Of a stretch of 64,000 nt of DNA, positions 2,139 to 59,702 are shown piece by piece (positions within the stretch are counted from its first letter, which is position 1; every line of letters starts with the position of its first letter). The notes under the pieces were generated by a model, which worked only from the letters and a program-made list of their open reading frames with translations, was not told the origin of the DNA and did not search any database. The translations under genes and the position numbers were made by a program. Source of the DNA: Chiloscyllium plagiosum (taxonomy: Eukaryota); the NCBI RefSeq assembly GCF_004010195.1, contig NC_057743.1:35665208-35729207 (forward strand). The letters run 5' to 3'.

Positions 2139-2702
2139 TTTTACATTTCCTTCTGGAATTCCTTTGCAAAATGTGCTTACTTAACAATCCAACACTTCAT
2201 TTCTACAGTAATTTAACTTCACTGATACTTATCATAGATTGATTAGCAAGACAATCGAAAGGTTATTGGAAGATGACAGAAGAATGGGTTTGAGAAACGT
2301 ATCAGTCACGACCAAATGAAAGAGCAGACTCAATGGACTTAATGGCCTAATTCTGGTCCTATATCTTATTCTCCGAAATGATCAAAAAAGCATAAAAAAA
2401 TACACCTTTGCTAAATTCTACCTACCTAGACATGATCTTGTCATTTTGTTCCCACTGTCATTCAATAGATGTGGAGGAAATAATTATCCTAAACTCAATG
2501 TTTAAATAAAGCTCAGATTTTACTACAGATTAGCAGTGTTATGTTGTCGCTTGTAGTCAGTTTGACAGCATCCTCAACTGACTTGGTAAGCCTTTGATTC
2601 ATGCCTAATTCCAATGCTGAAACATGTGGATCAAGCTAAAAGTTTGAAGGCACATTGCATTGTCAAAGTTACCATACTTCAGAGGACACATTTAAACAAG
2701 AG

Positions 2703-2895
2703 TTGAAAAGTGCGGTGCTGGAAAAGCACAGCAAGTCAGGCAGCATCCAAGGAGCAGGAGAGTAGACATTGATGAAGGGCTTATGCCTGAAACATCAACT
2801 GTCCTACTCCTCAGATGCTGCCTGACCTGCTGCGCTTTTCCAGTGCCACACTTTTCAACTCTGATCGCCAGCATTTGCAGTCCTCACTTTCTCCC
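2703..2895. mobile_element. Short palindromic PLE-derived element (family 1), internally deleted, with hammerhead-like core
   Basis: 17-bp TSD acacatttaaacaagag (2686-2702 / 2896-2912). Inverted arms; core tgatga-a-gggc-ttat-gcct-gaaaca; full terminus cctcactttctcc on the right. Confidence 0.85.
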
Positions 2896-3029
2896 ACACA
2901 TTTAAACAAGAGCCTGGCTACCTCAGGTGTACATTAAAGACATGATGGATATATGCGAAAAGCAAGGAGTTCTACCTTGGTCATCGTTCTTCCCTCAAAT
3001 TAACGCTACCAAAACTAGATTAATACTTA

Positions 3030-3676
3030 GAAGTATTGATATGTAGAGGGACCTGGGTGTGCAGGTCCACAGACGACTGAAGGCGGCAGTGCAGGTAGAT
3101 AAGGTAGTAAAACAAGGCTTAATGTATGCTTGCCTTCACTGGAAGGGGTATGGAGTACAAGGATAAACTAGTTATGCTGCAACTTCATAGAACTTTAATT
3201 AGGCCACACTTGGAATACTGCACACAGTTCTGGTCACCACACAACCAGAAGGGTGTGGATGCTTTGGGGAGGGCACAGAAAAGGTTTACCAAGATGTATT
3301 CTGGAATGGGGGATATTAGCTATGGAGAAAGTTTGGATAGGCTGGGCTTGTTTTCACTGGAATGCAGGAGATTGAGGGGCGACTAAGAGAAGTTTATAAG
3401 ATTGTGAATGGCATGGTGTGTGGGGAAAGTATGGGGTTTTTCCCCAGGGTGGAGGAGTCAATTACTAGGGACACAGGTTTAAGGTGCAAGACAAGGGTAG
3501 TTTAGAAGAGATGTGACAGGCAGGTTTTTCACAGAGGGTGGTGCCTGGAACATGTTGCCAGAGGTTGGGTGTGGAAGCAGACATAAAAGTGGCATTCAAG
3601 ATGCACCTGACGAATACATGAATAGGAAGGGAATAGAGGGATATGGATCCTGTAAGTGAAGACAGTTTAAGCATAG
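3030..3676 (+). mobile_element. CR1 LINE 3' fragment (older subfamily)
   Basis: ORF 3126-3386 (LIRPHLEYCTQFWSPH...LGRAQKRFTK...LDRLGLFSLE.RRLRGD) is the typical CR1 ORF2 C-terminal region. Confidence 0.88.
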
Positions 3677-4062
3677 CGTTACAGAGAAGCACAGCATGGA
3701 AACAGGTCCTTCTGTCCAACTCGGTCATGCCAACCAGATAACCTATACTAATTTCTTTTTTGTGGGGTGGGGCGAATCCAGAACTAGAGGGCATAGCTTT
3801 AAGGTGAGATGGGAAAGGTATAAAAGGGAGCTAAGGGGCAATTTTTTCATGCAGAGGGTAGTGAGTGTATGGAATGAGCGGCCAGAAGCTGGTACAATTA
3901 CAAAATTTAAAAGGCATCTGGATGGGTATACAAATAGGAAGGGTTTAGACAGATATGAGCCAAATGCTGGCAAATGGGACTAATATTAGATTAAGACATC
4001 TGGTCAGCATGGATGAGTTGGAGCGAAGGGTCTGTTTCTGTGCTGTATATCTCTATGACTAT
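3677..4062. mobile_element. CR1 composite: inverted tail piece (~3677-3755, minus) joined to a plus-strand 3' end (~3763-4062)
   Basis: ESRTRGHSFKV...WNE...FKRHLDGY.NRKGL on +, ending ctctatgactat. It is preceded by the reverse complement of the same tail. Confidence 0.8.
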
Positions 4063-4234
4063 TCCCAGCCTGCATTTCCTCCTCCCACCCGAGCTCATGT
4101 CCCATAAACGTTGGATTTAAAACAGTGTCCAAAAAACATGCTCTCATTCACAGCCTCGGTAATGGAGAATGTTTACCAAGGGATGGTATTACGGTGTACC
4201 TGGAACTTTGAAAGGCATTCATTCATGCACACGA

Positions 4235-4700
4235 ACAAACGTCAGCCACTCAGCCCACCAAACCTGTTTAGCCATTCATGGCTGATTTGACTTTAACCTC
4301 AGCTCTACCTTTCTGTGGCTCCCCTGATTGCCCAGAGTTTATCTGCCTTCAAGATATTCAAAGATTCTGCATCCACTGCCTATTAAGGAAGGGAATTCCA
4401 AAGACTCAACCATCTGGAGATGGTAAGTGTTTCCTCATCTGTTTCAAATGGGCGCCCTCTTATTATTAAACATTACCCCCTAGCTTCTCCCACAAGAAGC
4501 AGCATCCGTTCCACATGGTCATGTACCCTCAGAATCCCATACCTTTCAGTTCAGTCTTCTCCGATGCTTCTAAACTCCACAGTACACAATCCTAGCCTGT
4601 TTGTCCTTTCCTCGGGAGGCAGTCTGTTCATTCCAGTCTATTCTACCTTCTCTGAACTGCTTCCGTAAGGACAGTGTCCAATTCTGTACACATTACTCCA
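4235..4700 (-). mobile_element. Old degenerate CR1 3' fragment
   Basis: Reverse-complement CR1 3' motifs (cagccc...atggctgat..., ggaattccaaagac, catctgtttcaaatgggcgccc, cttctctgaactgcttcc). Confidence 0.65.
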
Positions 4701-4704
4701 GAGA

Positions 4705-8200: not shown

Positions 8201-10289
8201 GAAATTAGTAGATTAATTGAGCTTTGAACAATACCCTTAAAATAGCTTCTAAAATTTGAAACATTGGAATGTGAACTTCAAATGGCCTACTAACAACCAG
8301 GAATCTAAACAGTTTGGCAATCTTTACAATTATTTTAGGATCAAAGGCAATAATATGGATCCAGGCAAAGGCACTCTTGCTCCATCATTCAATCGTTTTT
8401 AATATATTGTCAGATGCTAAGCTGGAAACCTCAGTTTGGCAGGAAAAATATTTACCTTTGATCTGGCCTGAAGGCTCTTATATGTATCCAGAGCATGGTT
8501 TAATGATACGGCACAATAACGTGGCAATGTCCAGGAGATTGCCTGACATACAATTATATTGCAATGTTAGCGTGCACCTCTTAATTCAAAGTTACTTATA
8601 TTTTAGATTGTTTTCTGCACTAAATCACAACATTATCATGTTACTTACATTGCTAAATGGCTAATGCATTTTTTAAACTGCCAATTAGACTAATTATTTT
8701 AAAAGATGTGCAACCTGACTGTAAATATAATGAAATATATTTCACGAACTGAACAAGCTTACTGTAACTGGTTTTACTTATTGGCTGTAAACCACTTTGG
8801 GATGCGACAAAGTGCCATACAAAATCAATTATTTTTGTTTTTTTAACTCAATATCCTAAAAATGTCTTTTACAAAATTCTCTGGGTATGTTCACAAAGCT
8901 TATTTTTTAATCTGTGTTCCAATTTGTAGAGAGATGGACCTGAGCAAAACAGAACAAGAACAATCTGTTGAGATGAAAGCAATGCCAAAAATGTTATTTA
9001 ACCAAGCGATGAGGATTAAGCAGTGTTCAGTCATTTTCTTCAACAGGGTCCTCTGGAAATGGCAGTTGCAAGATGGTGAAATGTGTTATTGATAACGCAA
9101 ACCCTGATGGCACTCGTTGAATGAAAGCTTGATTCTTTTGACTGGAGAGCTGTAGGATAATTGCAATGGGTATCAAAAATAACAGAACTGCAGCACAACC
9201 AAATAACTTGAAAAGTCTTAGGAAAGGTTTCTCATGCCAAGATAATTTTGACTGCAAGATAAACATGCTGAAGTACATTCTGCCCCTTGCAAAAGAAGAA
9301 ATGCTAAATTAAACCCAGTATGTATCCTTCCAGTTCAGACACAATAGTGGTTGGTGCTAGAACTATTCACCAATTGCAGCAATGGTACAGAATTGTTCTA
9401 TGGATCAACGGCCTTCAAAAATTTTGTCAACATTTTACCAATAAATTACCAAATCTTGGCAACTCCACTAGTTGCATTAGTCCACAGACATATTGACTGG
9501 TTCCAGATTGTGCCTGATAGAAATATAGGCATAACGTTCAGTTGCTTCTAGTAAATATATTAATCAAGAGGCAAAATTGAAGGATTGACTACATGCATCA
9601 ACTTTTCTCTGACTCATGTGGCCTTTATATATAAAAAGATGTTAATAAAAGAAAAATCAGCATTTTTCAAAATCTAACTATTAGCACCAGCTGAAAAAGT
9701 GCTTAAATGGAATCAAACTGTTCTAACAAAACTTCAGAGTTTTTCTCAAAAACATTTCTAGGGCACAATGTCAGGAAAGAGCTTCTGCAGCAAAGTTGAA
9801 ATTGCAAGCCTTTTCAATACATTGACGGTTGAAAAAAGAATTAGGAGGAAGAAAATTGTGAGAAAGTACTTCATTTATTACTTGGAGAAGGCTCTAGCCT
9901 GATTGTTCCAATAGGTAGCACTGCAGGGAATTACTGGCTCACAGCACTTTGCAAGTTAGAAGTCCGTTTGCTGCAATACAATTTTGAACACATATCAAAA
10001 TGTTCGAATTTAAGTCTCTTAGAACCTTAGTACCATACTTGTGAAATTGTTAGATCCAACATTTCTACAAATCTATAGTTTAAAGTTGTTTGCATGCTTG
10101 AACTATCAGGAAAATGGTATACAATGTAGTTTTTTTTATAGAAGTTTCTTACTGGTTGTAGAAAATGTAAATATTTTAAAGTGTATGAACACTTAAATAA
10201 TGTTTGCTGGCAAAACTAAACAAAACCTAAATTTCAGTAACTTTTGATATTAGCATACCCAACCAAATTAATATTCAAACAACAAAAAG

Positions 10290-10375
10290 GATCATTGGAC
10301 CCGAAATTTTAACTCTGCTTTTTCTCCACAGATACTGTCAGACCTGCTGAGTTTCTTCAGCAATTTCTGTTTTTT
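10290..10375 (+). mobile_element. Single-arm remnant of short PLE-derived element (family 3)
   Basis: ggatca-ttgg-acccgaaattttaactctg...ccacagatactgtcagacctgctgagtttc, related to the 41876-42027 element. Confidence 0.6.
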
Positions 10376-10719: not shown

Positions 10720-10804
10720 TGATTGGGTTGGGATATCTGGTCGGCATGGATGGATTGGACCGAAGGGTCTGTTTCCATGCTGTACATCTCTATGGCTCTA
10801 TGAC
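10720..10804 (+). mobile_element. CR1 3' tail only
   Basis: gattgggttgggatatctggtcggcatggatggattggaccgaagggtctgtttccatgctgtacatctctatggctctatgact. Confidence 0.85.
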
Positions 10805-11390: not shown

Positions 11391-11393
11391 CGA

Positions 11394-12324: not shown

Positions 12325-12595
12325 GATTAATAATAAATGGCATCCCTTTTAAGATAGACATGAGGGAATTTTTTTTTTACCAAGGGTCATTAGGATGCGG
12401 AATTTTCTTCCCAGAAAGCTTGGCCTTTGACTTTACTCAAGGCTGATTTGAAATGGTTTGATAGAAGAGGGCATCAAGGATAATGAGGGGCAGACAGGAA
12501 CATGGTCTCGACCACAAATACATCAGCCATAATCTTACTTAATGTTGAAGCAGGCTCAAACATTCTGAATAGTTCTATTCCTGCTTCTAATTCGG
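12325..12595 (+). mobile_element. Old CR1 3' end
   Basis: tttaagatagacatgagg...ggaattttcttccc...atcagccataatctt...aatgttgaagcaggctc...ctattcctgcttctaattc. Confidence 0.6.
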
Positions 12596-12604
12596 ATGTA
12601 GACA

Positions 12605-12692
12605 GGCAAGGGGCTGGAAGAACACTGCAAGTCAGGCAGCATCAGAAAGTGGAGAAGTCAACATTTCAGGTGTAACCCTTCTTCAGGACTGT
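12605..12692 (-). mobile_element. Single-arm PLE-derived element (family 4) with hammerhead-like motif
   Basis: Minus strand 12689-12657 reads GTC-CTGAAGA-A-GGGT-TAC-ACCT-GAA-ATGT-T-GAC. Confidence 0.7.
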
Positions 12693-15853: not shown

Positions 15854-16065
15854 GAGAAAGTGAGGTCTGCAGATGCTGGAGATCAAAGTTGAAACTTTAT
15901 TGCTGGAACAGCACAGCAGGTCAGGCAGCATCCAGGGAACAGGAGATTCGACGTTTCGGGCACAGGCCCTTCTTCAGGAAGAAGGGCCTGTGCCCGAAAC
16001 GTCGAATCTCCTGTTCCCTGGATGCCGCCTGACCTGCTGTGCTGTTCCAGCAATAAAGTTTCAAC
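15854..16065. mobile_element. Near-perfect palindromic PLE-derived element (family 1), young
   Basis: 15-bp TSD tcagatgtaatgatg (15839-15853 / 16066-16080). ~85-bp arms are almost perfectly complementary, with an extra terminus gagaaagtgagg... on the left only. Confidence 0.92.
15947..15980 (-). ncRNA. Minimal type I hammerhead ribozyme-like motif (intact core), sense to RERE pre-mRNA
   Basis: TTC-CTGAAGA-A-GGGC-CTGT-GCCC-GAA-ACGT-C-GAA: stem I UUC/GAA, stem II GGGC/GCCC, palindromic ACGU, GUC cleavage triplet. Confidence 0.7.
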
Positions 16066-16329
16066 TCAGATGTAATGATGCCAATTTTTAAAGTTTTGGT
16101 CTCATTTGGAATACCCAAAAGTACCTCACTGGAGCTCTGTGTAGCTACAGTAAACGTCCATATTTTTATTTTCCATTCCCTTCAGAATAAATGCCAACAC
16201 TGTTTGCTTTCTTAATCCCTTGCTTTAGCTGCATATTAACTTTGTGATTCACATACTGGGAGAATACACAGACAGCATGCCACTGATACAAATGGTCTAC
16301 TTGTTAAATGCAAAACTAAATCAGTCCTG

Positions 16330-17224: not shown

Positions 17225-17457
17225 AAAATCACACAACACCAGGTTATAGTCCAACAGGCTTAATTGGAAGCACTAGCTTTCGGAGCACTGTTCCTTCATC
17301 AGGTGGTTGACCACTGCTCCTTCATCAGGTGGTTGACCACCTGATGAAGGAGCAGCGCTCTGAAAGCTAGTGCTTCCAATTAAACCTGTTGGACTATAAC
17401 CTGGTGTTGTGTGATTTTTAACCTTGTACACCCCAGTCCAACACCGGCATCTCCGAA
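17225..17457. mobile_element. Palindromic PLE-derived element (family 2) with three CTGATGA cores
   Basis: 12-bp TSD tctggttggtta (17213-17224 / 17458-17469). Arms aaaatcacacaacaccaggttatagtccaacagg... and their reverse complement. Confidence 0.92.
17338..17372 (+). ncRNA. Minimal hammerhead ribozyme-like motif
   Basis: CAC-CTGATGA-A-GGAGC-AGC-GCTCT-GAA-AGCT-A-GTG: stem I CAC/GUG, palindromic AGCU, CUA triplet. Confidence 0.7.
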
Positions 17458-25279: not shown

Positions 25280-28200
25280 CTTCTATATTCCATTGAGTAT
25301 GGACAAAGAGTCTACACCTCTATCCTTCCTATCAAACTGCATATTCTCACACTTCCCCGCATTGTATTTCATCTGCAACCACTCTGCCCACTCTCCTAGC
25401 CTGTCCAAGTCCTTCTGTAGTCTTCCTGCTTCCTCAACACTCTGTCCCTTCACCTATCTTTGTATAATCTGCAAATTTAGTAACAATGCCCTCAGTCCTT
25501 CGTCCAGATTGTAAATGTATAATCTGGATAGTTGTGGTCCAAGCATGAACCTCAGTGGAAGTCCACTAGTCACCAGCTGCCATCCTGACAAAGACCCCTT
25601 TACCCCTACTCTCTGCCATCTGCCAGTCAGCCAATCCTCTATCCATGCCAGTATGTTGTCCCAAACACCATGGGTTCTTATTTTGTTTACCACCTTGTTA
25701 AAAGCATTCTGGAAATCCAATCAGATCATGTTCACTGGTTCGCCTTTGTCTAACTTAAACATAACGTCCTCAAAGAACTCTAACAGATTTGTCAGGCTGA
25801 CTTCCTCTTGATGATGCCATGCTTGCTCAGATATAATATACCATATATTTCCAAGTATTCTACAATCTCATCCTTAAAAATGGATTCTAACTCTTACCAA
25901 CAACCAAAGTCACACTAACTGGCCGATAGTTTCCGGTCTTCAGCTTCCTTCCTTTCTTAAACAGAAGTGTTATATTAGCCAATATCTCTACAGTCTCCTC
26001 AGCGATCTCTTTCAGAACTCTGGGGTTTAGTCCATCCGGCCAGGTGATTTATCTGCCTTCAGACCTTCCAGCTTTCCAGCACCTTCTCCTTAATGATGGC
26101 CACTATACTTATCGTTGCATCCTGACTATCTTGAAGTTGGGTATTTTGCTGGTGTCTTCCACTAATGCAGAGTACCTATTCAATTCCTCCACCATTTCTT
26201 TCATCCCCCCCGTTACTACTTCTCCAACCTCACTTTCCAGACCCTGTGTGCACTCTCGCCTCTTACTTTCAGATATCCCAAAATAACTCTTGGAATATTC
26301 TTTTATAGTCATAGCTTGCTTACGCTCACATTTGATTTTCTGACATCGTATTGCTTTTTTTAAAATTATCCCCTACTGGTTTTTAAAGGCTTCCCACAAA
26401 TCTTCACTACATTCTCTGCTTTTTCTTTTGCTTTTATGCTGTTCCTACTTTCCTTGTCCTCCTCTTATTGTGTTTCTTCTTCCTTGGAATGAATTTCTGC
26501 TGTGTTCCCAAATTACCCCCAGAAATGTCTGCCACTGCCAGTCCACCATTTTCCCTGCTTGGCTCCCCTTCCAATCAACTCTAGTCAGCTCCTCCCTCAT
26601 GTCTTTGTAGTTACCTTTACTCATTTGTAACACTATTACATCTGATTGTGCATCTCCCTTTCAAACTGCACGGTGAATTCTATCAATCCTATTATGATCA
26701 CTGACCACTTTGGGTTCCTTCACCATTAATTCCATAATCAAGTCTGTCTCATTACAAACCACCAAATCCAGAACTTCCTGTTCCCTACAGGTTCTACCAC
26801 AAGCTCTCCAAAAAAAAAGACTCACATGCATTCCAAAAATTCCTTTGATTGAGATCTGATTTTCCCAATTCACCTGCACATCGAAGTTCCCCATGTTTAG
26901 TGTAATACCGCAAACCTTTTATTATTAACAGGTACCGATGGGAGGAGTGCGATAGTTGATTAAGATGTCCACATAAACAACATAAAAACACCTACTAAGC
27001 AATAGAAATGTAGTACATGAGTTGTACATTATTTCCAGTATAAAGCAAATAATAATGCAACTTTACAATAAATAAACGTACCAACAGGGAGCCTTCTCAT
27101 TTGTACCCTCAACTGACTTTTCGGACATTGCAGAGATCACGAGAATACAGTAAACATCTAGTATACTCGGCAAGTCATTTTTTGCCAGTCCGTAGAGTAT
27201 GCTGTTTTTTAAAAGATGCCGATTAAAACAATTTGCTATAGTACCTTTCTTACATGCCTTTCCTGTCTCCTGATTTATTTTCTTCCCCACATCCTAACTA
27301 CTGCTAGGAGGCCTGTACGCAACTCTCATCAGGGTCTTTTCTCTTTTGCAGTTCAACTCTACCCATACAGATTCTACACCATCCGGCTTTATATCACTTC
27401 TTACTCGTGATTTAATTCCATTTCTTACTAACACAGCAACCTGCCCCCTCTGCCTATCTGCCTGTCGTTTCGATGGGATGTGTGTCCATGCATATTTTGT
27501 TCCCAGCTTTGGTCCCCTTGCAGCCACATCTCTGATACCCAAATCATTACAAAAATCAATTTCAATTTGCGCTCCAAACTCATTTATCTTGATTCGCATA
27601 CTGCATGCATTTAAGTACAACACCCTCAATCCTGCATTCACTGTCCGCACATCGGCTGTGCCTAAAGTTAGATTTCTAAGCCTTTCCATACCCTCTATCC
27701 TATTGTGTACTCTGGAAGCTTTAATCTCTGCTGAGCCCTCCTCACCCTTAACTTTTTCCATGATTTACTATTTAATCTGAAGCATCCAAGGGGCAGGAGA
27801 ATCGAAGTTTCGGGCAAAAGCCTTTCATTCCTGAAGGGCTTTTGTCCGAAACGGTCGATTCTCCTGCTTCTTGGTTGCTGCCTGACCTGTTTGTGCTTTT
27901 CCAGCAGATTATTCTTGACGCTAAATCTCCACCATCTGCAGTCTTCCCTTTCACCGATTTAATTTGAAGCCTAACCCATGGCTTTCATTATGCAATTCAC
28001 CAGAACACTCAGGTGGAGCCTGTCCCATCAGAACACATCCATCCTTTCCCAGCACTGGTGCAAATTCCACCTGTCTTTCCCACAACAATCTTTGAGCCAG
28101 GCCTTTACCTCTAATCTTTTTGACCCAATGCCAATTTGCTCATAGCTCACATAGCAATCCAGATATTATTACCGTTTTAGTTCTGCTTTTTTAATTTAGC

Positions 28201-35471: not shown

Positions 35472-36600
35472 TGTGATGAACACTTCTTTTCATTTCTCTT
35501 AACCTTTGATTGTGGACTGAATAGGGAATGGACTGTGCTACAGGAAAGAAATTGCAGATTTTTTTTTGAAAGAAGCAAGCCATTGAAACTTTGTGCGGTG
35601 TTTACATTGCCACTTTAACGAAGCTTGAAGGAAGAGGTACAGACTCTTGTATCGAATACAATGTGAGCTTTGGCTGGCAGTAGGTTGCTGATTGGATTGT
35701 GAAATTGTGATCAGTTATGGATGCCAAAGGCCATTAGCCTGAAAACAACTATCTGACTAGTTCTTGGGTCGCTGAACAGCTTGTTGGTATGAATGATACC
35801 TGCAGAAGCCTTCAGGACTGTTGATAGGGCAAGTGGTGTGCTTCTCTCACCAGTAAATTTCTAAACTCTGAACAAAGTCAGTTTATTTTATTCCAACATT
35901 TGGTGTGAGCTGTTGCTTTTAACCAATAAGTTGGCGAGTCCATAAATCATTAACCTGCACTCTGTCTCATGTCAAGAAGTGATAGAACCTGAAGGAAAAG
36001 ATCAGACAACAGAAAGATTTGGAAAAAAAGGAACATTCCATCGAGTCCCAATGACAAGTGCTATTAAACCGAGTCCCCAGTAATTTTTTGCCCTCAACTC
36101 AGAACAATTCCTTTTGTCTCTCTCTGTATGTGTGTAGAGAATTTTTAGGAGGTTAGAGTTTTAACTAGTAGAGGGTTATAGGTCAACAGTTTATTTCAGT
36201 TTGCTGTGGTTGTAATCTGTGGACTCCTAATAATTAGTTATGATTTGGAGATGCCAGTGTTAGATTGGGGTGTACAAAGTTAAAAATCACAACACCAGGT
36301 TATAGTCCAACAGGTTTAATTGGAAGCATACTAGCTTTCGGAGCGCTGCTCCTTCATCAGGTGGTCAACCACCTGATGAAGGAGCAGTGGTCAACCACCT
36401 GATGAAGGAACAGTGCTCCGAAAGCTAGTGTGCTTCCAATTAAGCCTGTTGGACTATAACCTAGTGTTGTGTGACTTTTAACTTAATAATTAGTTAACCT
36501 TGTCAGGTACAGAAACCTCATTTGTGTTTTCTGTTAACCTGGATTTATCAGACAAGAAAGAAATTTTAACTTTTGTGACAACTTAGTGTTTCCTGGGTGA
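35472..36600 (+). mobile_element. LTR-like interspersed repeat, copy 1
   Basis: Starts TGTGA. Shares tgtggactg.aat.gg, gttagagttttaactagtagag and tttgtgacaact with 43445-44699. Confidence 0.5.
36241..36483. mobile_element. Palindromic PLE-derived element (family 2), inverted sister of 17225-17457
   Basis: 13-bp TSD taataattagtta (36228-36240 / 36484-36496). Motif CAC-CTGATGA-A-GGAAC-AGT-GCTCC-GAA-AGCT-A-GTG at 36396-36430. Confidence 0.92.
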
Positions 36601-38724: not shown

Positions 38725-40330
38725 ACCACAAGACCATGTAGGAGGAGGCTAATCAGCCCATCAAGTCTAGTGGCCTGAATCAGAGGCTGAATGTTCCATA
38801 TACCTGTATTGAGATTGGACTTTTAAGATTTGGACACTTTTCTTTCTTCACATCTGGACGTTTTTCTTTCCTTTTGGCTCTGTTTCTTATATTTCTGTTG
38901 CCTTTTTAATTCTGGTTTTTCTAAAAAAGATGCCACTGGAGAATGGCAACTTTGTATACTTTTCACTGGATTCCTGCATTCCTATAGGAGGAGAAAGTGA
39001 GGACTGCAGATGCTGGAGATCAGAGCTGAAAATGTGTTGCTGGAAAAGCACAGCAGGTCAGGCAGCATCCAAGTTCCTGAAGAAGGGCTCATGCCCAAAA
39101 CGTCAATTCTCCTGCTCTTTGGATGCTGTCTGACCTGCACTTTTCCAGCAACACATTTTCAGTCCTGTATTCCTATACTTGAATGAGTGTGACAATAAGA
39201 TCTAATTTTAATTATGGCTGATCTGATAATCCTCAACTACACTTTCTTGCCTTTTCCCCAAAACCCTAGATTCTTTTAACGCTTAAAAATTTGTCCATCT
39301 CAGTCTTGAAAATACTCAATGATCCAGCACTTACAACTCTCAGTGGTAAGGAATTCCACAGATTCACTACCCTCAGACAATAATGGCATGCGTCTTAAAA
39401 GAGCAATCTCTTATTCTGAGATTATGTCTCAAGTTCTAGACTCTCTAACAAGGGCAAAAAAACCTTTCTGCATTTATCCTGTCAAGCCTGCTAAGAATCT
39501 TCTTTGTTTCTATACAGTTGCCTCTCATTCTTCTAAACGCCAATGAATATAGGCCCAATCTCTTCTTACAAGTCAGTCCCTCCATACCTAGGATCAGTGA
39601 ACCTTCTCGAATGGATTGCCAGTACATCATTTCTTAGATAAGCGGAGCAAAACTGTTCAGAATATTCCTCAAAAGAATTCTTAGAAATTTGATTGGCATG
39701 ATTTCCCTTTCACGAACTCATGCTGACTATGGATTTCTAAATGCTCTGCTATTACATCCTTTATAATAGACTGTTAACATTTGTTAAGCTAACTGACCTA
39801 TGTTTTGTCTCCTTCCCTTTTTAAAATAAAGGTTCTACATAGGTTGTTTTCCAATCCTCAGAGACATTTTCAGAAGCCAAGGATTCTAAGAAGATTACTA
39901 CCAGTATATCAATCATCGCTGTAGCTGCTAATTTTAATTCTAGTGTACAACCCATCATGTGGAGGGGTCTTTGCAGCTCTTTAGCCCCATTAATATTTAC
40001 TTCTTATGCTCCTTTTCCACCTTGGATAATATGGTATTTTTGGAATGCATTAGTGTTTCATAGAAGATGCTAATAGCAACGTAGCTATTCAATTCCTCTG
40101 CCATTCCTCATTGTTTTCTTAGCCTTGTTCTCCAAGAGGCTTACGTCAACTTTGGCCTCTCTTTTCCTTCCTATATATTTAAAGCAACCCTTGCTGTCTT
40201 ACTTGCAAGTTTATTCTCAAAGTTTATTTTCTCCTTTATTGTTGGCTTTGGTCATCATTTGTTAGTTTTTAAAACTTTCCCAACCCTCTACCCTTTCACT
40301 AATCTTTGCCACAATATAGATTTTTCCTTC
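38725..40330 (-). mobile_element. Old, deleted CR1 LINE interrupted at ~38770-39212 by a SINE-like element
   Basis: Tail accacaagacc...cagcccatcaagtc resumes at tatggctgatctgataatcctc. ORF LGLYSLAFRRMRGNCIETKKILSRLDRINAE. Confidence 0.7.
38987..39162. mobile_element. Palindromic PLE-derived element (family 1), left arm internally shortened
   Basis: 15-bp TSD tcctg(c/t)attcctata (38972-38986 / 39163-39177). Core ttc-ctgaaga-a-gggc-tcat-gccc-aaaacgtc. Confidence 0.88.
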
Positions 40331-41875: not shown

Positions 41876-42027
41876 GATCAAAAACAGAAGTTGCTGGAAA
41901 AGCTCAGCAGGTCTGGCATCATCTGTGAACAGAAATCAAAGTTAACATTTCAGGTCAGGTGACCCTTCTTCAGAACTTCAATTTTTGTTTCTTTTATCAC
42001 AGCATCTACAGTTCATTGGGTTTTTAA
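41876..42027. mobile_element. PLE-derived element (family 3) with hammerhead-like motif
   Basis: 11-bp TSD tttggaatctt (41865-41875 / 42028-42038). Minus 41976-41941 reads GTT-CTGAAGA-A-GGGTCA-CC-TGACCT-GAA-ATGT-T-AAC. Confidence 0.8.
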
Positions 42028-48090: not shown

Positions 48091-48149
48091 AAGTCTTTTA
48101 ACAAAGAACCACCATAAAGACCCACAGGTTTCTATGTTCAATCCTCAGA

Positions 48150-48660: not shown

Positions 48661-51600
48661 GTTTTTATGTTTTTTTTAAAGAACGAAGGTTAGGGAGGAA
48701 AAGGAGAAATTAAGCAAAGCCTTTAACTGCTACTAAGGGTTTGATACTCCCATTGGATCAGATGAGGGCAGGATTAGAATGAACTGCATGCTTCCACTAA
48801 ACTCTCAGGTAATGGCCAGCGAGAGCAATCAAGAATTTGATTGCAAATTTTATTTTCCAGATGTAAGAATGTTGTTGTTGTAGCAGAAATGTCTGGGAAT
48901 ACATATAAATTCTAGGCATAGAAAGACCTGATAATGAAATTTTGGGCGATGATACCAGAGAAACATCTGCTTCCTTTCCATCTGAACGAAACACCACTCA
49001 GGATGGATAGGAACTGGTTAGCTTTGCATCTTTCCTGAGAACCAGGGGTCTCAAGGTGAAAATGCCATCTGCCAAGCACAGCCAGCCAAAAGCCGATAGC
49101 ACTATTCAGAACTGCAGGTAACTTCCAGGGTCGTCACCAGAGATTATTGCAGATAGCTGGACTTAGATAAGAGGGAGTAGCTTTGAGATCATGAAAAAGG
49201 CATGGGGATCAGAAGTTGAGGCAAGGTGTGTTGCTTTCAGTCACCATCCTGTCCCTAATGTCAGGTTCCTCAATCAGGGACTAGAAAGAGGCACTCTCTT
49301 ACAAGGCTGCCGGTAAACCCATGATAATTTCTAAGACATCCTGCAGGAGGCATGGAAAAGCTGAGCTTCTCGCATTTAATCCTTGAGCCACCAGTCAGTC
49401 AATTTGTTGAATCACAGAAATGATACAGTGCAGGAGGCGGCTGCTTGACCCATTATCTCTACACTACATTTGAGCATTTTGTCATCACACCAAACTCCAG
49501 ATTTTCCCCCACAACCCTGCACATTGATTCTATTTAAATAATCATCCTATGCCTCTTAATTGCCTCAACTGAGCCTGTTCCAGTGGGCTAGAGCTAATTG
49601 GTGTCAATTGGCTCAATAATGAGCCAAAGTGACATTCCACCTCAATCAGGCAAGTATCCGCCATGCACTCCTTCCAGACTCCAAGTTAAGCACAAGTTTT
49701 ATCAATACTGGAGCACGAGTTGCAGCCTCACCCAAAAGAGGATAAATTTAACCCTAACTTAAAGGTCCGACTGACATTATTGCATGCAGCAACACTATAC
49801 AGCTCTACTACAGCCACAATAGGCAATGTATTTTGGGAGTAGCACAAGGGACTGTCCATTTTTAAAGATCAAGAAAGGGGTAAAGGTCACCTGCCCACTC
49901 TTGCTCTTTATGCACCAATACAGTAGCATTTATGACAGATATTCATTACCACAAACCCCTTCAAAAATCTAATACAAAGAGATTCTGCAATTAGAAAGGT
50001 AAACTAAACACCATTAGATAAGGAATCCTTACACTACATCATTTATTTAATGGCCTAATTTTTGTTTTGCTATTTTGTAAATTATTTTAGGTAATACCTT
50101 ATGTTTAGTCCCATGGGTATAACATTCTCTACATATTAAAATACTGCAAATATCTGTCAAAATCAAAATTACATCATTTTGTACATAAATGTCCAGGTAG
50201 AAAAAAACATTTGCAAATTTAGCACCCGATTACAAAATAGGTACTTTAATTACTTTATTATTTTAATTATTTCAGCAGAATGAAGTATTACCTTGCCTCA
50301 ACTGTTGCTAGTGTTGAATGTTTTAATTATTAAATATTTACACAGATGCAGCCTCTATTCTGCCAAAGTGATTAATGCTTTCAAACAAAATTCTTCTGCA
50401 ATAAATACTTCTCTGGGTAATATGTTATATTTACCAACAGTAACCAGATAAAATAACATTAACAATTTCAATATCTGAAACGAGAACAGGAAAAATGAAA
50501 GAGTATATTTCACTACATTAAAAAAAATGCAAAAATCTGTGGGTTTTTCCGACCTATTTCTTTCATTAGGGTGCAACAAACTCAAATTATTCAGAGTTCT
50601 CAAAAAAACTGTGTACGAAGCAAAACAAACATGCTCAATACGTCTATTTGGTACCTTTTCTAATACAACTAGCTGTTTGGAAAGACTAACAAACCCAAAA
50701 TCATTTGATTTAATAGTTACAAACGTATTGAACCCTCAGCCATCTTCACACTTTATATGATGCCAATTATTTGTTAGTCTAATTTATAATTATGATTAGT
50801 GTAGTTCCTGCAAGGTAAAACATTACCAAGTGGGAGGATAACAAAAGCTAATGTGTAGTACACATATCGGACCTTTGCTAAAAGCAGACATCCAATAAAT
50901 CACAACACCTGCAGCTTTAGATAGTTAACTCTTCCAGCCTCCTGTTTGCCAACTTAGATAGTTAACTGTCTTTCAGCTAATACACAATCACAAAATTGTG
51001 TCGTCATTCATGTAGGAAAATCAAGTTTTCAAAAGCATGGTTCCAGGCAAACAAAAGTAAACTTTTATTTATGTTATTCATTAACATTAAAGTTGAATTA
51101 ATTTAAAATCTAGTTAATGGCTCTCTGGGTGATCACTCAGTTAGTAGCTGAAACCTAGTGAAGAAAGGTCAAAACAAAAAGGTGACCAGGAAAAATCAAC
51201 CAAGTCGTATTCATTCCCTCGCTGTCCTTCCTAAAAGTACACATTTGTGATCAATGGGCAAAGAAAGGATCAAGTCCAGATGCAATCTCGTCCTCATGGA
51301 TGAATAGATTGACAACATTCACCTCCGATGAAGCACTGGTGGTCTATCCCACTTGCTATGCATGTATCTTGGTCTGTTGTGGTGGGTGATATCACTTCTG
51401 GTTCTTTTTCTGAGAAGTTGATAAATGGACCCCAAATCAATGTTTGTTAATGGAGTCCTGGTTTGAATGCCAGGCCCCTAAAATTCCCATGCACATCTTT
51501 GTTTAGCCTGTCCCAGGATAGATGTATTGTCCCAGTCATCTGGTGTCCTTCTTCATCTGTGTGTATGGATACCAGTGATTGTTGGTCATGTCTTTCGATG

Positions 51601-52889
51601 GCTAGTTTGTGCTCATGTATCCTGGTGGCTAATTTCCTGCCCATCGTATCCAATGTAATGTTTGTTCCAGTCCTTGCAGGGTATTTTGTATATGATGTTG
51701 GTACGGGTCCTTTAAATTCATCAGGAGCTGTTTCAATGTGGTGGTAGGTTTGTGGGCTACCATGATGCCTAGGGACTGGACTAGTCTGGTCATCTGAGAT
51801 GTCTTTAATGTATGGCAGGGTGGCTAGAGTCTCTGGACGTGTTGTGTATTCTTGTTTAGGCCTGTTATGTAGGAATCGACCGACCGTGCTTATCGGGTAC
51901 CCGTTGTTCCTGAATTCATTATATAGGTGTTTTTCCTCGGCTTCTCATAGTTCCCGACTGCTGCAGTGTGTTTTGGCTCTTTTAAATAATGTCCTGATGC
52001 AGCTGTGTTTGTGGGTGCAGAGATAATTGCTCCTTGTAGTATCTGGTCAGTGCATGTGGCTTTCCTGTAGACATTGGTCTGCAGTTCTCCACTGTTTTTT
52101 TTTGTTCTACTCTGAAATCTAGGAAGGGGAGTCTGTTGTTGTTCTCTTCCTCTTTGGTGAACTTTATACCGGTAAGGATGCTGTTTAAGTGATTGTGGGT
52201 TTCTTCTAATTTGTTTTGTTTCATGATAAAGGTGTCATCCACATAGCGGACCTAAAGCTTGGGCGAGATCATGGGAAGGGCTGTTCGTTCTAACCTCTTT
52301 GTGACTGCTTCTGCTAAGAGTCCTAATATTGGTGATCCCATGGGGGTCCCATTGATTTGTTTGTAGATCTTATCATTGAAGGTGAAGTGGGTCGTGAGTC
52401 ACAGGTCTACTAGTTTGAGGATGCTGCCCGTGCTGATGAAGCTGGTGCTATCAGGTGTTTGTGTCCTTGGTTCAGCTAGAAGTGAAGCCAGTGTTTCTTT
52501 TGCCAGGGTGATGTTTATTGAAGTGAACGGGTCCTTTATGTCGAAGGAAACCATGGCTTTGTCATCCTTTACCTTGGTGTCGCTGATGATGTTAAGGAGT
52601 GGCTTGAACCTTCTACTAGGTGCTTCAGTTTGTGTTGCAGTTCCTTTGCTAGTCTGTATATCAGTGTACCAGGAAGTGAGACTATGGGTCTGAAGAGGAG
52701 GTCTCCCGTTTATGTACCTTGGGTAATCCGTAGAAACAGGGTGTTTAGATTCTTCTCATTGTTAATTTCATCTGTTTTGTGAAGTTTCCTCAGGGATGCT
52801 GTAATACGGTTTTCTAACTGTGGAGTCTGGTCTATCCCCACCCGTTTGTTGTTGGTATTTACAAGTAGGGTGTTTACTTTTTCAATGTA

Positions 52890-53814
52890 CAGAGGAACCA
52901 CGATTATCCAAGTATCGATTATCCAAAGAAGATGTCAAGATCCTGATAGAAACATTACATCAAAGAGGTGTTTTCAACACTGATCACTTTTTTGTTTACA
53001 ATGATTAAAAACAAACTCGGCTTACTGAAATGTTGCCAAAAACAGTCCTGGACATCAATAGGAGACCAGACACCATCTCCAAATGATTGATCACCTGCCC
53101 TCCCTCTATCTCCCCACACTTTCCCTGGAGTTCTGCACTGGAGTGTACCCTTAAACCCCCCCCACCCTTCCCCAGATAATCTCTCCAACATTGCCCTGTA
53201 TAATATAAAGGTGAAACTTGTCAAAAAGTTGCAGTAAAAAAGTGTGTGCTTGTGCGTGTGTGTGCTACTTTGATACTCACCTACCCCCCCAAGGCAGCAG
53301 CAGTCTTACTGTTGGTGTCCAGCCCGGCTGCCCTAGTGTGCGTGCATGCTCCCTGTCCATGGCAGGGCCATAGACAGGGAGCAATGGTGGGGGGCAGATG
53401 CGTGCATGGATCGGACACACGGACGGGGGTCAAACGGTGGGTGGGGCGAGAGGGTGGGCGGTGTTGGAGGCACGGAGTTGGGGGTGCGCACGCGCGCAGT
53501 GTGCTGCTGCCTAGTCTCCTGAATGGGGAGCGGAATTAGCAAATGCTCATCGTGTCAATCCTATTGAACAGATTTTCTTTGGTGGGAAGGATGTGGGAGA
53601 TTTCCGCAATGCTGTAGGTACCTTACACACAAGTGTATGTCTGCTCAGAAACAAATCCTGAGACAGAGAGAGGGAGCAAGGCAGGCAGAGCGAGGAAAAA
53701 AGGAAACTTCAGAAATCTTCAAGCCCCAGAGGAGAGGCATTGAATCACTTAACTGAATAATCAATGATCCGAACGAAATAGTGCCAGCCCATTCGGATAA
53801 TCAAGATTCCTCTG
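52890..53814. mobile_element. Non-autonomous Tc1/mariner-superfamily (Tigger/pogo-like) DNA transposon nested in the PLE
   Basis: TIRs cagaggaaccacgattatccaa / revcomp cagaggaatcttgattatccga, with TA duplication (52888-9, 53815-6). Removing it restores PLE reading IILNRTQ-Y-IEKVNTLL. Confidence 0.9.
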
Positions 53815-54878
53815 TATTGTGTTCTGTTCAGGATGATGGTCATACACCTTTGTCTGCTGGTAAGATTACAATATTTCTGTCTTTTCCCGAGTCCTTCCAG
53901 GGCTTTCCTTTCCAGTGTATTGAGGGTGCTCCCTTCTTTCTTTCTGCTTAGTGTTGGTGCTACTGTCTGGCTGATGGTCTGCTGGATTTCTTCCATAAAT
54001 CCATTGTCTTTCAGGGTGGATTCCAGTGCTGCTAGGAAGTTCTTTTTGTCTACGTCCCTGTGGTTAAAGTTCATACATCACACCAGGCTTTTTCAGTGTC
54101 TGAGTGTGGTCGGTCCAACAGGTTCTTTATCCAAATCTCTGAACTATCTGCGTTATTGTCGAGAGAGAGCTTGGTCAGTTTTTCTTGTAAAGCCAGTCTT
54201 TTCTTTGTCTTGGTCTACTGTTGTTTAGTGTTGATGGCTTGTTCTAGCATACTTTTCCATTCATGGCCAGTCACATTAGTGTACAGAGTTTTCTGGCGTG
54301 AAATTTGTCATTCATATTTGTGGAGTTGGTTTTGGGCATCATTTACCATTTCTCATAGCATCCTGCAGCCATTCTGTTCTGCTGTTCTTCTGGCTTGTGG
54401 AGTGCGGAGAGGTGGTTTGTATTTGACACATTGTGGGGATACCAGCTTCCTGAGGCATTTGTATAGGAAGTACAATTGTTGGCAGGTGGCGCTCAGTCAG
54501 ATGGCATTGGTTTCCCATCTTCGGGCTAATTTGAGCACATTATGCCTATACATGTTTGCAATTTTGGAGATGATTTCTCGCTCAGGTTGTAAGTTTGCTC
54601 ACTGAGCTGGTAGACTTGTTCTCAGACATTTTGTCACCATACTAAGTAACATCATCAGTAACACCACCTGAATGCCAGACCTCCAGGCCTCTAAATAAAG
54701 GCACGCATGGGAATTCCTTGATGCCTTGCATTCAAACCAGAACTCCATTAACAAACACATCGATTTGGACCCCATTTACCAACCTCTCAGAAAAAGAACC
54801 AGAAGTGATATCACCAACCACAACAGACCAAGACACATAAGTAGCAAGCGGGATAGGCCACCAGCACTTCATCGGAGG

Positions 54879-54920
54879 CTCACTGATGATGTTACTGCGC
54901 ATGGTGATGAAACATCTAAG
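54879..54920 (+). ncRNA. Decayed hammerhead-like motif in the PLE pseudo-LTR (second copy on minus at 54621-54660)
   Basis: CTCA-CTGATGA-T-GTTAC..GTGAT-GAA-ACAT-C-TAAG, and minus copy CTGATGA-T-GTTAC..GTGAC-AAA-ATGT-C-TGAG. Consensus gives stem I CUCA/UGAG and ACGU. Confidence 0.65.
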
Positions 54921-57900
54921 AATAAATCTACTAGCTCAGCGAGCAAACTTGCAACCTGATTTACAAATCGCCAAAATTGCAAACATTCACCACTAAGGCA
55001 CATATATTGATGATGGCCTTTGGGCAAGATATTGAAGATAAGCAAGTGCCTATTTGTTTTCAGTACAGTTCCCAACATCTGCAGTAATTTGGCCAAAGAC
55101 TCTCATTCCATTGTCATCTGAATTTTTTCTTCAAGGCAAAAGTGGCATAGTATCTTTTTATGATAAGCACTTGATATGCAAACTTGACATAATCTAATGT
55201 TTGAGGTTTAAATGATACAAACTATAATCCAAACTAAATACATTTCATACAAAAAGCAGTACAGTATCTAGCTCTTTGCACAAAATCACATCTATTTCAG
55301 TCAACAATAACTTTCAAGGTAGTCTCTCTCCATTTATCGGAAGACAGCTATTATTTAAGTTTGGAATACAGAAAGATGGTTAGCAAACATATACGAAATT
55401 ATAGAACCCTGGATTCCTAAAGCATAGAGGGAGGCTCGCCCTTTGAAACAGCTCTCAAATTAGCCCCACATGCCAACTTTTTACGCATGACCTTGCAAAT
55501 TAGTCCTGTTCAAGTACCTGAGCAATGCCCAATTGCTCTTAATGCATTCTGGATCTTAATGATTTGTGTGGAGAAACCTTTCTTTAAATCTAGTAGATAT
55601 TGAAATTGTGTTTAAAAAACTGTATAAGTGTTCTAAGAGCTTTATCATTCCAATAATGCAAGCTAATTTACAACACACAAACATTTTCAGTTTCAAATCT
55701 TGGTTTGATAAAACTGCCCATATTTGAAATAAAATTAAGTTGACTCTCAGCAATAGAAAGCCAGAATCGCATGAGTAATTATCAAGTAGTAACCAATTGC
55801 CACCAGCAAATCACAAACATATTTCCGAGGTTATGGGTTTTCTTGTAGATGAAATAACTAGTGGCAAGTGGTAGATATTGGAAGAGCATTTTCGGCATAA
55901 CATGAGAATTAGCAATTTGTGAGCAGGTTCTTCCAAAATGACTAGTGATATAAAGAGCAAGACTGAATTAACAGTTTAATTCAACTACTGTACTAATTAA
56001 TTTGCCTTCAGTGCTCTAAACTGCACTTTGGAGTTAAATTAGTAGACAAGTATTGAAAGCACAGAAAAAGGCAACATTTCCAAATGTTTAACAGCCCCCT
56101 GTTGGGTGTTTCATCACATTCATATACTTTTGAACTTCAACAATCGTTGAAATTAGAATTTAAAGTGATTCAATGATTGTGGAACCTGGAAGTTAACTGC
56201 CACAAAAAGTGTTTATTTATTCCTACTTTTTACCCTTTAAGAGCAAACGGTGCAGAAAAATGATGAAATATTAAATCACATCAGTATGCAACTCCCATTT
56301 GTTCAAAGATATGATATAAATTTGAAATTTGACTCTTTTTGCAAAAATAAATTTACTGTCCTCTACTTTCAGTTGTGGTTAAAAAAAACTGATTACCAAA
56401 AAAGCAAGCAACGTTTTAGTGTTCAGAGCAAGTCAGCCGAACAACTACCACAAAATGTGCAATTGCAGAAATAAGTTAACAGAAGTTACAATTTTTACTA
56501 TAAACCTTGAAATCCAATGGCAATGCTCTGAAATCAAACATAAAAAGATTTTTGTTGCATAAAGTTTGTAATAACAGCTTCAAATTTCAGGGAATGGTCA
56601 TTTACAATGACATTACAGGAAACACAAGTGACGTTTGAATCTGAACTGTTCATTTAATTACTATGTCCACAATATGCAAAAGTCTAAATTGTTCCAAAAA
56701 TCTCATCAAAATTATGGGTCTCACATGTGTAGTGACAGGAGTAATAATAGCTTACCTAGGTAATCCTTTGGCTGAATTTAATTTGAACAGGTCAACTTCT
56801 CAAATGGTTGCTAATTATTAAATCACACAACCAAAAAAGAAAATCACAATATCATTTCCATATACCCTCATCACCCAATCTTGGAACAAAGTATCTTTAA
56901 TTATTTTCACTAACCAATAGTCACATCTTAATACTTCTGACATAATTTACATTTTTTTTAAATTCAGAGTCAGTATAGTACCATTTGAAATTTGTAGGTG
57001 CCAAATGATTTAATAACCACACACTAATAATTAGTTTTAAATGTTATACTTCTTGTAAATAAAATCAAACATTTATTTTTATTTGGTTTGAGTATAATAT
57101 TTCTCCAAAGCTTAAATTGGGCTAGTTCAGCATCCCATAGTGAACATAATTTCCTTTTTTCCAATAATTTCCTTCAATAAAATGAAGCACACATTGCTTT
57201 CATCAAGTTCAGTGTCTGTTCTTCTTCAAAGCTCAGAAATAACCAACTTATTTCAGAGATTTTTTACTGAAAAAAACAAATATATTATAGATTCCCCCTG
57301 AGGCTGGTGTAAATTTTACAACCTTCACTTCCTTTTCCATTGTTGTACAAGAAGGTAGACTGCTTCCCCATTTGCCACACTAAACAGCTCAGATCTAAAC
57401 TTTACATCAATCTATTTGACAAACACAACTTTTCTGCATCTAATATTGTATATACAGAATGTTTCAATTTTTACATGTGACAGTGAAGTTTAAGCTATAG
57501 AAAAAAATAGTTTATTTTACCATTCATGTCTTCAAATGTCACCTTTCAGAAAGAGAATTTTACCTCACTGCAGTTTAAATGTCATAACTGAAGCAGCACA
57601 AAGAATTCAGATCAATATGCCATGCCAAGAGATCTAAACTAATATAGGGAAAAAATGCAATTCTATTTCAACAGTAGTGCTTCATCTGAAGTGTAACAAG
57701 ATTTTTTTGTAAGTGCACTCAAATCAGTGCATAAGACTCAAAGTAATTCAATCCTAGAAATAGAATATTACAACATGCAACTCTAAAGCTGCAGAAGAAT
57801 AATTCTCATTCCGGAATATCAAAATGTTACCCTATTCCACTATCCCCACAATAATTAACATCTCCTTCACATGCACTATAAATGGCCATTTCCTTGAAGA

Positions 57901-57984
57901 ACTGGCATTTTTGTGATTCTGTCCTGATGAATGCAAGATTTGAAAGGCCAAAAGGAGAATATTGAAACTCAAGTATGTACATAA

Positions 57985-58740
57985 AAGACCTATGAAATTA
58001 GGAGCAAATATAGGCCAATCAGCCCCAAACGTCAGCATCATTACTTAATAAAATCATGCCAGACAAATTATTCAACCAACAAATTGGTCACCTACAATAA
58101 CTACTAAGGATCTGCCTACCCCAATTTTAAAATATTCAGAAATTCTGTTTCCATTCCCCTTTGGAGGGAAGAGTGTTCCAAAGACTGTAAACTCTAGGAA
58201 AAGGTTTCTCAACTTTTGTATGAAAAGGGTAGTCTGTAGTTCTAGGTTCTGTCACAAGAAAAAAACATTCTTTCCACCATCCACCCTGTCAAGTCCCCTC
58301 ACGATTTTATATGATTTTATCAAGTTGGCCTTCCTCTTCTCGCAAATTCTAACAAGCCGAGCCTGCCCAGCCTTGCATCACACAATATCTTTCCTACTCC
58401 AAGTATTACTCTTATATAACTCTGCTCAGCTTCCAAAGCATTTATATCCTTTATTAAGGAGATCAATATTCTGGCTATAGTCTCAGCAATGCTCCAAGTA
58501 AATGAAGCAACCTCCCTAATTTGCATTCAATTCCCCTCATTATAAATTATAACATTCTATTAACTTTGTTGCTTTCCTAGAAGTTGCTTTCCTACCAATC
58601 AGCAAATTTATCAACCTGCTAGTATCTTCATCCAAGTCATTTACAGATGCCATAAAAAGTTGAAGCTGCAGCATTAATCCTTGACATATCTTTTGCTACA
58701 TCTTGCCAATCACCAAATGACCAATTTATGCCTACTATCT
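57985..58740 (-). mobile_element. Old CR1 3' fragment
   Basis: atgaaattaggagcaaatataggccaatcagccc tail; catccaccctgtcaagtcccctca; cttcatccaagtcattta. Confidence 0.65.
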
Positions 58741-59421
58741 TGTACTTTTTAATGTAGACTTCCAGAGCTACATACAGAAACGTACATAGAGACACACTTA
58801 ACATTTCACCGATTCTTATTTAGCAAACCAATTATTGATGTTTACTGAAAAAAAAAAATGAGTGCTACAGAAATAAATTACAGAGTTTGGTGGTCAACAA
58901 TATGAAGTTTCAAGTGGGTGTATTTAGCAAACTGCTCTGGGAATTTAGGCTGCTTTGAGAACTACTGCAAATACACCAATACACCTAAACTGTTCCTCAG
59001 ATAAGTGCTCATGGGGCAGTTAAATATTATTTTGTTACATGAATTCACTTTACAAGTAAAGTAATTTGTACTTTGATACATTTTCCACCAGAATTACTCA
59101 GGCTTCTGAACTTGAGTTACTTCGGGCTTGTTGACTCATGAATGTGATCTCATGAGATCAGTGACATTTTGAGCAATTGTACTTTAAAATAGGCCTAGTC
59201 TTTAAATGGCATAAAGCATCCACTCGGTTCAACAACATTAAGATTGATCCAAGCCCATATTATCCTAATATATAACATTTAAATCTGTAAAATGCATTTC
59301 ACATAGAAGTTAAACAAAATGCTTTGAAATCATTTATCAACTTGTAATAACAGATGTTTAATTTTAATTAATTTGATGAACCAGTAATGAAATGATTTTT
59401 TTAACTGCCACTGTAAAATGA

Positions 59422-59521
59422 TTTAAAAATCACAACACCAGGTTATAGTCCAACAGGTTTACTTGGAAGCACTAGCTTTCGGAGTGCTGCTCATTCATCA
59501 GGTGGCTGTGGAGTAATCATG
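59422..59521 (-). mobile_element. Single-arm family 2 PLE-derived element
   Basis: 12-bp TSD actgtaaaatga (59410-59421 / 59522-59533). Minus motif CAC-CTGATGA-A-TGAGC-AGC-ACTCC-GAA-AGCT-A-GTG. Confidence 0.88.
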
Positions 59522-59702
59522 ACTGTAAAATGAATTATTCATTCTATTTATTACTCACTGACAATATGACCCTCATTTCAGAAAAAGTTGTGATTACAAT
59601 TAAAACTGTAGATACTATAAAAGCCAACACATTCGTTTTCCTAAAACATTACCATTTAACAGAAATTCCCCTCATTGTGAAATTCTGAAGAATGGAGCTA
59701 AA

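Follow-up and report, generated by a model that had tools for sequence, protein, structure and literature searches.

Penelope-like elements (PLEs) of metazoans carry minimal hammerhead ribozymes, thousands of which, mostly single motifs ascribed to truncated PLEs, were reported by Cervera and de la Pena (2014; PMC4209133), together with a model in which they act as dimers. Canonical endonuclease-bearing (EN+) PLE units show head-to-head inversion, a one-sided tail of 30-40 bp, target-site duplications (TSDs) of variable length and an initiator-like motif in the pseudo-long terminal repeat (pLTR) (PMC8557442, PMC3846280). For PAc, a Poseidon element of Anolis, in vitro work showed that both target strands are nicked and extended and that RNA left unprocessed serves as the main substrate (Frangieh et al. 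2024, PMC11167929). Here we describe related sequences in a 64,000-nucleotide stretch of Chiloscyllium plagiosum (GCF_004010195.1, contig NC_057743.1, positions 35,665,208 to 35,729,207 of the forward strand; hereafter the window), part of an assembled genome of 3.56 Gb. The original prediction, made from the letters of the window, had named nine short hairpin retroelements with minimal hammerhead motifs; all nine inserts were located and all come from hammerhead-bearing repeats (Table 1). We consider it likely that they are 5'-truncated, often inverted pLTR ends of at least five PLE families with a minimal type I hammerhead, left behind by autonomous elements as dead-end side products of their target-primed reverse transcription.

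The inserts are of a kind already described in PMC4209133 and PMC8557442. With the former they share the core, the extra base before stem II, the palindromic 15.2-16.2 positions, several covarying families per genome and motif pairs on opposite strands 100-700 bp apart. The accessible part of that paper names fish, coelacanth, Xenopus and reptiles, sharks not being among those named, and quotes 4,000-9,000 motifs, compared with 12,042 here; a pile-up of 5' ends at stem I, seen here, is not described in it. Inversion, tail, variable TSD and initiator-like motif of the canonical EN+ units all recur, but in C. plagiosum a unit has usually shrunk to 100-250 bp and has the hammerhead as the end of each arm, and the TSDs measure 10-17 bp as against 8-10 bp for rotifer PLEs (PMC8557442, PMC3846280). 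As in PAc, two internal start sites of reverse transcriptase (RT) probably bound the tail; the hammerhead of PAc is unneeded for insertion, and the accessible account of that element describes no genomic 5' ends at stem I (PMC11167929). Animal non-LTR retrozymes (PMC7229834; 10.64898/2026.07.22.740005) are likewise short, non-coding and pLTR-related and carry a type I hammerhead, but they are head-to-tail tandems of complete motifs, an arrangement found in 0/9 window inserts.

Origin of the inserts

Genome-wide, exact motif patterns matched 12,042 times for family A1 (a count based on one exact 34-nt pattern), 2,431 times for B, 227 times for D and 85 times for C, and the reversed-pattern controls gave 0 matches; exact matching undercounts old families, and C and D were sampled by motif-anchored patterns only. 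Exact tail patterns matched 9,563 (A) and 4,788 (B) times, and for family E there were 7,866 first-look candidates, 40 of which were scored. A GIY-YIG frame lay in sense upstream of the motif at 7/30 loci of family A, 2/30 of B, 2/30 of C and 12/30 of D. Pfam placed GIY-YIG of family A above its cut-off and a B fragment below it (E 0.0067), and the domain was seen by tblastn in C and D; seven raw window open reading frames (ORFs) and a 47-aa RT fragment, all short or broken sequences, had 0 Pfam matches. In family A the domain is preceded by CNRRRCNTC, a Cys linker as described for Neptune and not Poseidon; families A, C and D are candidate members of the Neptune clade. RT motifs were read in the large window element and at another genomic locus (L035).

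The short copies (stubs) match the ends of GIY-YIG-bearing copies at 97-100% identity, and no diagnostic stub-only lineage was found. Because the same arms stand downstream of GIY-YIG frames in longer copies and the insertion pattern is that of canonical PLEs, we read the inserts as truncated ends of autonomous elements; the PLE origin and the minimal type I hammerhead proposed at the outset are thereby upheld.

5' ends at stem I

Positions are given on a scale in which +1 is the base before stem I; a cleavage product would begin at +33. For family A we took a census of 100 tail-anchored copies, those matching the first 100 exact-tail matches; anchoring in the tail avoids selecting for the motif. 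Their 5' starts fell at -3..+8 in 40 copies, at +9..+28 in 19, at +29..+36 in 4, further downstream in 17 and upstream of -3 in 20. Thus 40 of the 60 copies that reach +8 stop within the 11 nt from -3 to +8, where the downstream rate would predict about 7%, a comparison in which the copies may not be fully independent. Among TSD-bounded copies the longer-reaching arm starts at -3..+8 in 37/41 hairpins (and beyond -10 in 1), as do 10/13 solos. Of 30 tail-anchored copies of family B, 22 extend no further than -10..+9 of the core and 2 run far upstream, one of these being the reference.

The context of +1 is TCATTCC in A, TCAGTTC in C and CCAGTCC in D, an initiator-like YCA motif that these three families match perfectly under the consensus that we assume. 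No earlier description of the stem I pile-up was found in the literature searched, older PLE reviews, supplements, subscription papers and repeat databases lying outside the search.

Tail, inversion and target-site duplications

Two clusters of 3' ends, about 35 nt apart, delimit the one-sided tail of family A: among 30 upstream-anchored arms, 27 end at about +92-105 or +127-136 (one of the others is the reference itself and two are shorter). An adjacent inverted arm accompanies 52/100 copies of the census and ends at about +92-107, compared with +130 for the tail arm. TSDs of 10-17 bp, with a mode of 14-15, were present in 54/100 copies and none was found in 45; single arms with TSDs account for 13/48 non-hairpins, and L040 and L045, binned with the solos, are in fact hairpins.

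The arms of hairpins span about 30 to more than 700 bp. In 41 TSD-bounded hairpins the arm reaching further 5' was the tail-less one in 26 and the tail arm in 11, with 4 ties; the 26 cannot result from simple fold-back of one tail-primed cDNA. A common short centre, TTC-AG-GAA, was found in both resolutions, with the intact core on either arm. Since the tail-less arm is often further 5' and the intact core occurs on either arm, both arms are likely RNA-templated. Hairpins mixing arms of subfamilies A1a and A1b numbered 0/37, A1b making up 29/226 arms, which favours one RNA or one source for both arms over two randomly drawn RNAs.

Covariation and folding of the hammerhead

A strict descriptor (stem I of at least 3 bp, CTGANGA, stem II of at least 3 bp, GAA, a palindromic A-NN-T, H) matched the window four times, at 15977(-), 17302(-), 17341(+) and 36399(+), in 3/9 inserts, and had 0 matches in 100 dinucleotide shuffles. 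Dropping the palindrome gave six motifs, adding 41973(-) and 12686(-), both with ATGT, again with 0 in 100 shuffles; a relaxed descriptor (one core mismatch, 2-bp stem I) gave seven, where 30 shuffles averaged 0.5. An Rfam scan of the window reported no hammerhead family at E<=10, and its 10 matches were all under the gathering score.

Covariation was examined with a stem-free descriptor, which on all retrieved loci gave 487 distinct matches and six families of at least 10 copies. Paired on their own strand, these families match at 22/24 stem I and 24/24 stem II positions; with strands swapped between families pairing drops to 56/120 and 75/120, and for each stem 4/720 permutations attain the observed pairing, figures to be read with the knowledge that five families were retrieved by patterns built from paired examples and that the families are related and defined by stem I letters. 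The covariation foreseen between family consensuses thus holds throughout stem II. For stem I the five predicted letter pairs recur as the commonest ones (TTC/GAA, CAC/GTG, GTT/AAC, GTC/GAC and CTCA/TGAG), and the exception is a sixth family, A2 (38 copies, found incidentally), in which TTC/GAT leaves a T.T mismatch. The insert at 27784 belongs to A2, as probably do those at 2703 and 38987. The stem I of A1, C, D and E has 4 bp, which exceeds the length first given. The unpaired base between positions 9 and 10.1 is A in five families and T in E; the 10.1-11.1 pair is G-C in A1, A2 and B and most commonly G-T in C, D and E, where G-C variants are also present, consistent with CpG decay. As predicted, the stem III palindrome is ACGT or AGCT in five families, with decayed ATGT and ACAT also seen and ACAT commonest in the old family E.

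By sequence logic stem III, with a 2-nt loop, cannot close in a monomer, in agreement with what had been proposed for a 4-nt stem. The computed intermolecular duplex of the 4-bp palindrome is weak (-1.7 to -2.5 kcal/mol), and the cofold structure of lowest energy differs from a hammerhead; single arms fold no better than shuffles (z -1.3 to +0.6). For whole-hairpin RNAs the predicted folding energies lie between -85 and -191 kcal/mol; the core is buried in 15854, 17225 and 36241, not in 38987. On these models a hairpin cannot supply the partner ribozyme: one RNA would hold one sense motif because the arms lie head to head, and in the folds this motif is paired with the antisense arm.

Proposed mechanism

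From these observations we infer the following course. An RT-GIY-YIG protein would nick both target strands about 14-15 bp apart, and RT would start internally on the RNA at either of two sites, about +130 (with tail) or about +95 (without). In families A and B it would usually run off at the RNA 5' end, which would be the first base of stem I (initiator-like YCA) on an uncleaved template, giving a strong-stop-like stub of 95-130 nt. Where both nicks prime, likely with the same RNA as template, two stubs would be joined head to head via short microhomology. In autonomous masters selection would keep the hammerhead, as reflected in the covariation, likely for slow cleavage in dimeric form or assisted by protein; within stubs it would be a decaying passenger. 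Whether the dominant PLE insertion product of this genome is such a strong-stop-like copy, made from the first 95-130 nt of a transcript that is uncleaved and begins at the first base of stem I, with double priming building the hairpins, is in our estimate evenly balanced.

Several results weigh against this reading. Among the recovered copies no intact ORF was present, and for families A, B, C and D no intact full-length ORF was recovered. Family B matches the initiator, again under the consensus that we assume, at only 6/7 positions. Family E has no wall: 21/30 copies extend beyond -20 and 6 start at -8..+12. The 1113 reads from raw RNA run X22 lay on both strands without peaks of read beginnings or ends, so that no transcription start was observed, and run X23 gave 0 reads. 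Gaps and mis-assembly often affect long copies, so that short TSD-bounded ones make up too large a share. Pairing of two RNAs as a source of the hairpin arms was rejected on the subfamily count above (0/37 mixed). In D. virilis, finally, helix I lies about 120 nt downstream of the transcription start, and an intron separates the two (PMC2377424, PMC4209133).

The ORF-bearing family E unit of the window begins at the A of TCACT. Full-length family E copies starting at the hammerhead were considered as a class and rejected, with 0/30 loci continuing into an ORF and the window copy as their sole basis.

Recurrent junctions and alternative explanations

Junctions of TSD-bounded hairpins are mostly individual, and hairpins with unique junctions have clean TSDs of 14-16 bp (L326, L327, L331, L332). 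Certain head-to-head spacings recur (149, 144, 201 and 170 bp). As candidate non-autonomous masters they were rejected; since they have no terminal TSDs, often adjoin gaps and carry identical unique flanks (142-759 nt in common at four loci, with 0 mismatches), they are likely gap-fill chimeras of the assembly. One unique flank was found spliced into the RT sequence of an otherwise TSD-bounded copy. Identical unique flanks were noted on family-A arms at distant loci (L256, L261, L278, L282, L322 and L325; L034 and L323).

Within the window, 17271-17371 and 36330-36430 are inverted copies 19 kb apart, 99% identical over 101 nt across a centre with a 26-bp duplication. The centre common to the inserts at 17225 and 36241 occurs in just these two copies genome-wide, and contigs from four other sequencing runs included none across the 17225 centre; it may reflect local conversion, a local hop or an assembly artefact. 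Elsewhere, 5 of 12 examined loci held N-free short head-to-tail units with TSDs (L371, L372, L377, L387, L397), so that retrozyme-like derivatives may exist in other parts of the genome, though the window has none. A 224-bp head-to-tail unit recurs at L031, L032, L389 and L395-L399, where an arm plus ORF start is joined back to -14 and complete hammerheads stand in tandem; often beside gaps, it may be retrozyme-like, if real, or a gap-fill loop.

The original prediction took the inserts for families of non-autonomous derivatives. For the nine inserts this finds no support: the arms are ends of GIY-YIG-bearing copies, and hairpin junctions are mostly individual and, where recurrent, look chimeric. 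That the hairpins and stubs are nevertheless genuine families, SINE-like (short interspersed nuclear element) or retrozyme-like, transcribed from an internal promoter of their own at stem I and depending on PLE proteins for copying in trans, seems to us unlikely. The numbers of exact A and B motifs together with a fixed 5' boundary are what an internal-promoter SINE gives, but the near-identity of stubs to the ends of coding copies, without a stub-only lineage, speaks against it. The short head-to-tail units with TSDs and the recurring 224-bp unit fit such families, as do pLTR-derived tandem retrozymes reported in vertebrates including one chondrichthyan (10.64898/2026.07.22.740005); the TSD-bounded hairpin junctions vary, however, the longer recurrent ones lack TSDs and lie beside gaps with identical flanks, and the 17225/36241 junction occurs only twice. 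A single-arm RNA from a stub would yield the same products as a master 5' end, so that secondary copying from stubs may occur.

We regard as quite improbable a course in which RT leaves the 5' end of a template cleaved at +33 for the short fragment upstream, or for re-ligated or circular RNA, so that copies seem to reach +1. A circular or ligated intermediate was proposed in PMC4209133, and template-switch tandems exist, but junction scars are lacking and hammerhead mutants insert normally (PMC11167929). Of the 18 solos starting downstream of +8, four begin at +29..+34, one of them (L134) exactly at +33 allowing for TSD overlap; this is near the approximately 2 expected by chance, and in the census there is no pile-up at +33 (4/100).

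DNA-transposon MITEs (miniature inverted-repeat transposable elements) with the motif by chance in their terminal inverted repeats can be set aside in spite of the hairpin shape and flanking duplications, the arms being unequal with a one-sided tail and running on into RT/GIY-YIG sequence, the centres variable, the TSDs of 10-17 bp not of fixed length, and single arms with TSDs common (13/48 non-hairpins).

The inserts and their surroundings in the window

The layout ascribed to all nine inserts, intact or decayed, held in part. The full motif is intact in 3/9 (15854, 17225, 36241) and the core in three more (12605, 41876 and 59422), and catalytic bases are broken in the remaining 3/9 (2703, 27784, 38987). 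Six of the nine are the hairpins that had been described; single arms stand at 12605 and 59422, and an arm with a tail-only piece at 41876. TSDs with 0-1 mismatch bound 8/9 inserts and are variable in length as stated, within 12-17 bp instead of 11-17 bp; none was found at 12605, also as stated.

Table 1. Hammerhead-derived copies in the window (window coordinates)
Feature	Position	Strand or arms	Details
Probable family A2 hairpin	2703..2895	tail-bearing direct arm 2771-2895 (+); inverted arm 2703-2770	core TTGATGA, ACAT (decayed); TSD 17 bp at 2686 and 2896
Family C single arm, tenth short copy	10284..10374	+	begins inside stem II, so without core; no TSD found; not in the original prediction
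Family D single arm	12592..12691	-	AGTC-CTGAAGA-A-stem II-GAA-ATGT-T-GACT; CpG decay in palindrome, core intact; TSD not found
Family A1 hairpin	15854..16066	both	tail arm with intact motif, core 15977-15971 (-); other arm without CT of core; TSD 15 bp at 15839 and 16066
Family B hairpin	17225..17457	both	26-bp duplicated centre; motif on each arm (17302 -, 17341 +); TSD 12 bp
Family A2 lopsided hairpin	27784..27956	both	2-nt core deletion, insertion in palindrome; TSD 14 bp (1 mismatch)
Family B hairpin	36241..36481	both	duplicated centre common with 17225; motif passes at 36399(+); stem I only 2 bp at 36360(-); TSD 15 bp (1 mismatch)
Probable family A2 lopsided hairpin	38987..39162	both	G12>A (GAA>AAA) on + arm; TSD 15 bp (1 mismatch)
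Family C arm and tail-only piece	41878..42027	tail-less arm 41977-41879 (-), tail piece (+)	arm with core intact, ATGT; TSD 13 bp (1 mismatch)
Family B single tail-less arm	59423..59521	-	core, AGCT and stem I kept, first stem II pair broken; TSD 16 bp (1 mismatch)
Large decayed PLE, family E, 3.7 kb	51324..54981	unit 54659-51324 (-), inverted arm 54660-54981	two decayed motifs; 10-bp TSD AACATTCACC at 51314 and 54982

In the large family E element the minus-strand unit begins at the hammerhead and retains the RT motifs SFDI, GTPMGS and RYVDD and a GIY-YIG-like remnant; the second motif, on the inverted arm, is decayed (CTCA/TAAG). Its end at 51324, a single case, halts about 6 nt before stem I, directly at the TSD and without tail. 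Nested in it, 52890-53814 is non-coding, with imperfect terminal inverted repeats of about 22 bp and TA flanks, and by its sequence looks like a MITE of Tc1/mariner-pogo type. At 43053-43451(+) a 132-aa frame resembles a decayed PLE-type RT fragment (SFDIVNLFT...DGVA); it has no adjoining hammerhead and no Pfam match.

Many fragments of LINE (long interspersed nuclear element) 3' ends, presumably CR1/L2-like, lie on both strands (1473-2053, 3606-4060, 5035-5205, 10721-10800, 11144-11977, 13029-13397, 22035-22193). A GC-rich minisatellite with a 16/48-bp period occupies 14739-15320 (48-mer x12, 98% match), and an assembly gap of 500 N lies at about 24780-25280. The exon at 687-1130(-), for which Pfam was uninformative, is one that we take to be like the first coding exon of RERE/atrophin-2; the inserts would then occupy 5' intronic or promoter DNA upstream of that exon. 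Elsewhere in the genome, a family-A stub is flanked at locus L001 by a retrovirus-like pol fragment (RNase H region; 135-1151(-) of that locus).

Implications

The motif class and the insertion pattern were already known; the present analysis adds figures for the pile-up at stem I, sets it against the cleavage site and warns of assembly chimeras, as the recurrent "hairpin families" of the assembly look like gap-fill products and can mislead repeat curation. Assays of dimer or protein-assisted cleavage have ready-made constructs in the six natural stem variants. If the proposed mechanism is true, tens of thousands of junctions would be an in vivo record that hammerhead cleavage does not make the template 5' end, and would provide a single-base map of PLE start sites, of both RT start sites and of nick spacing.

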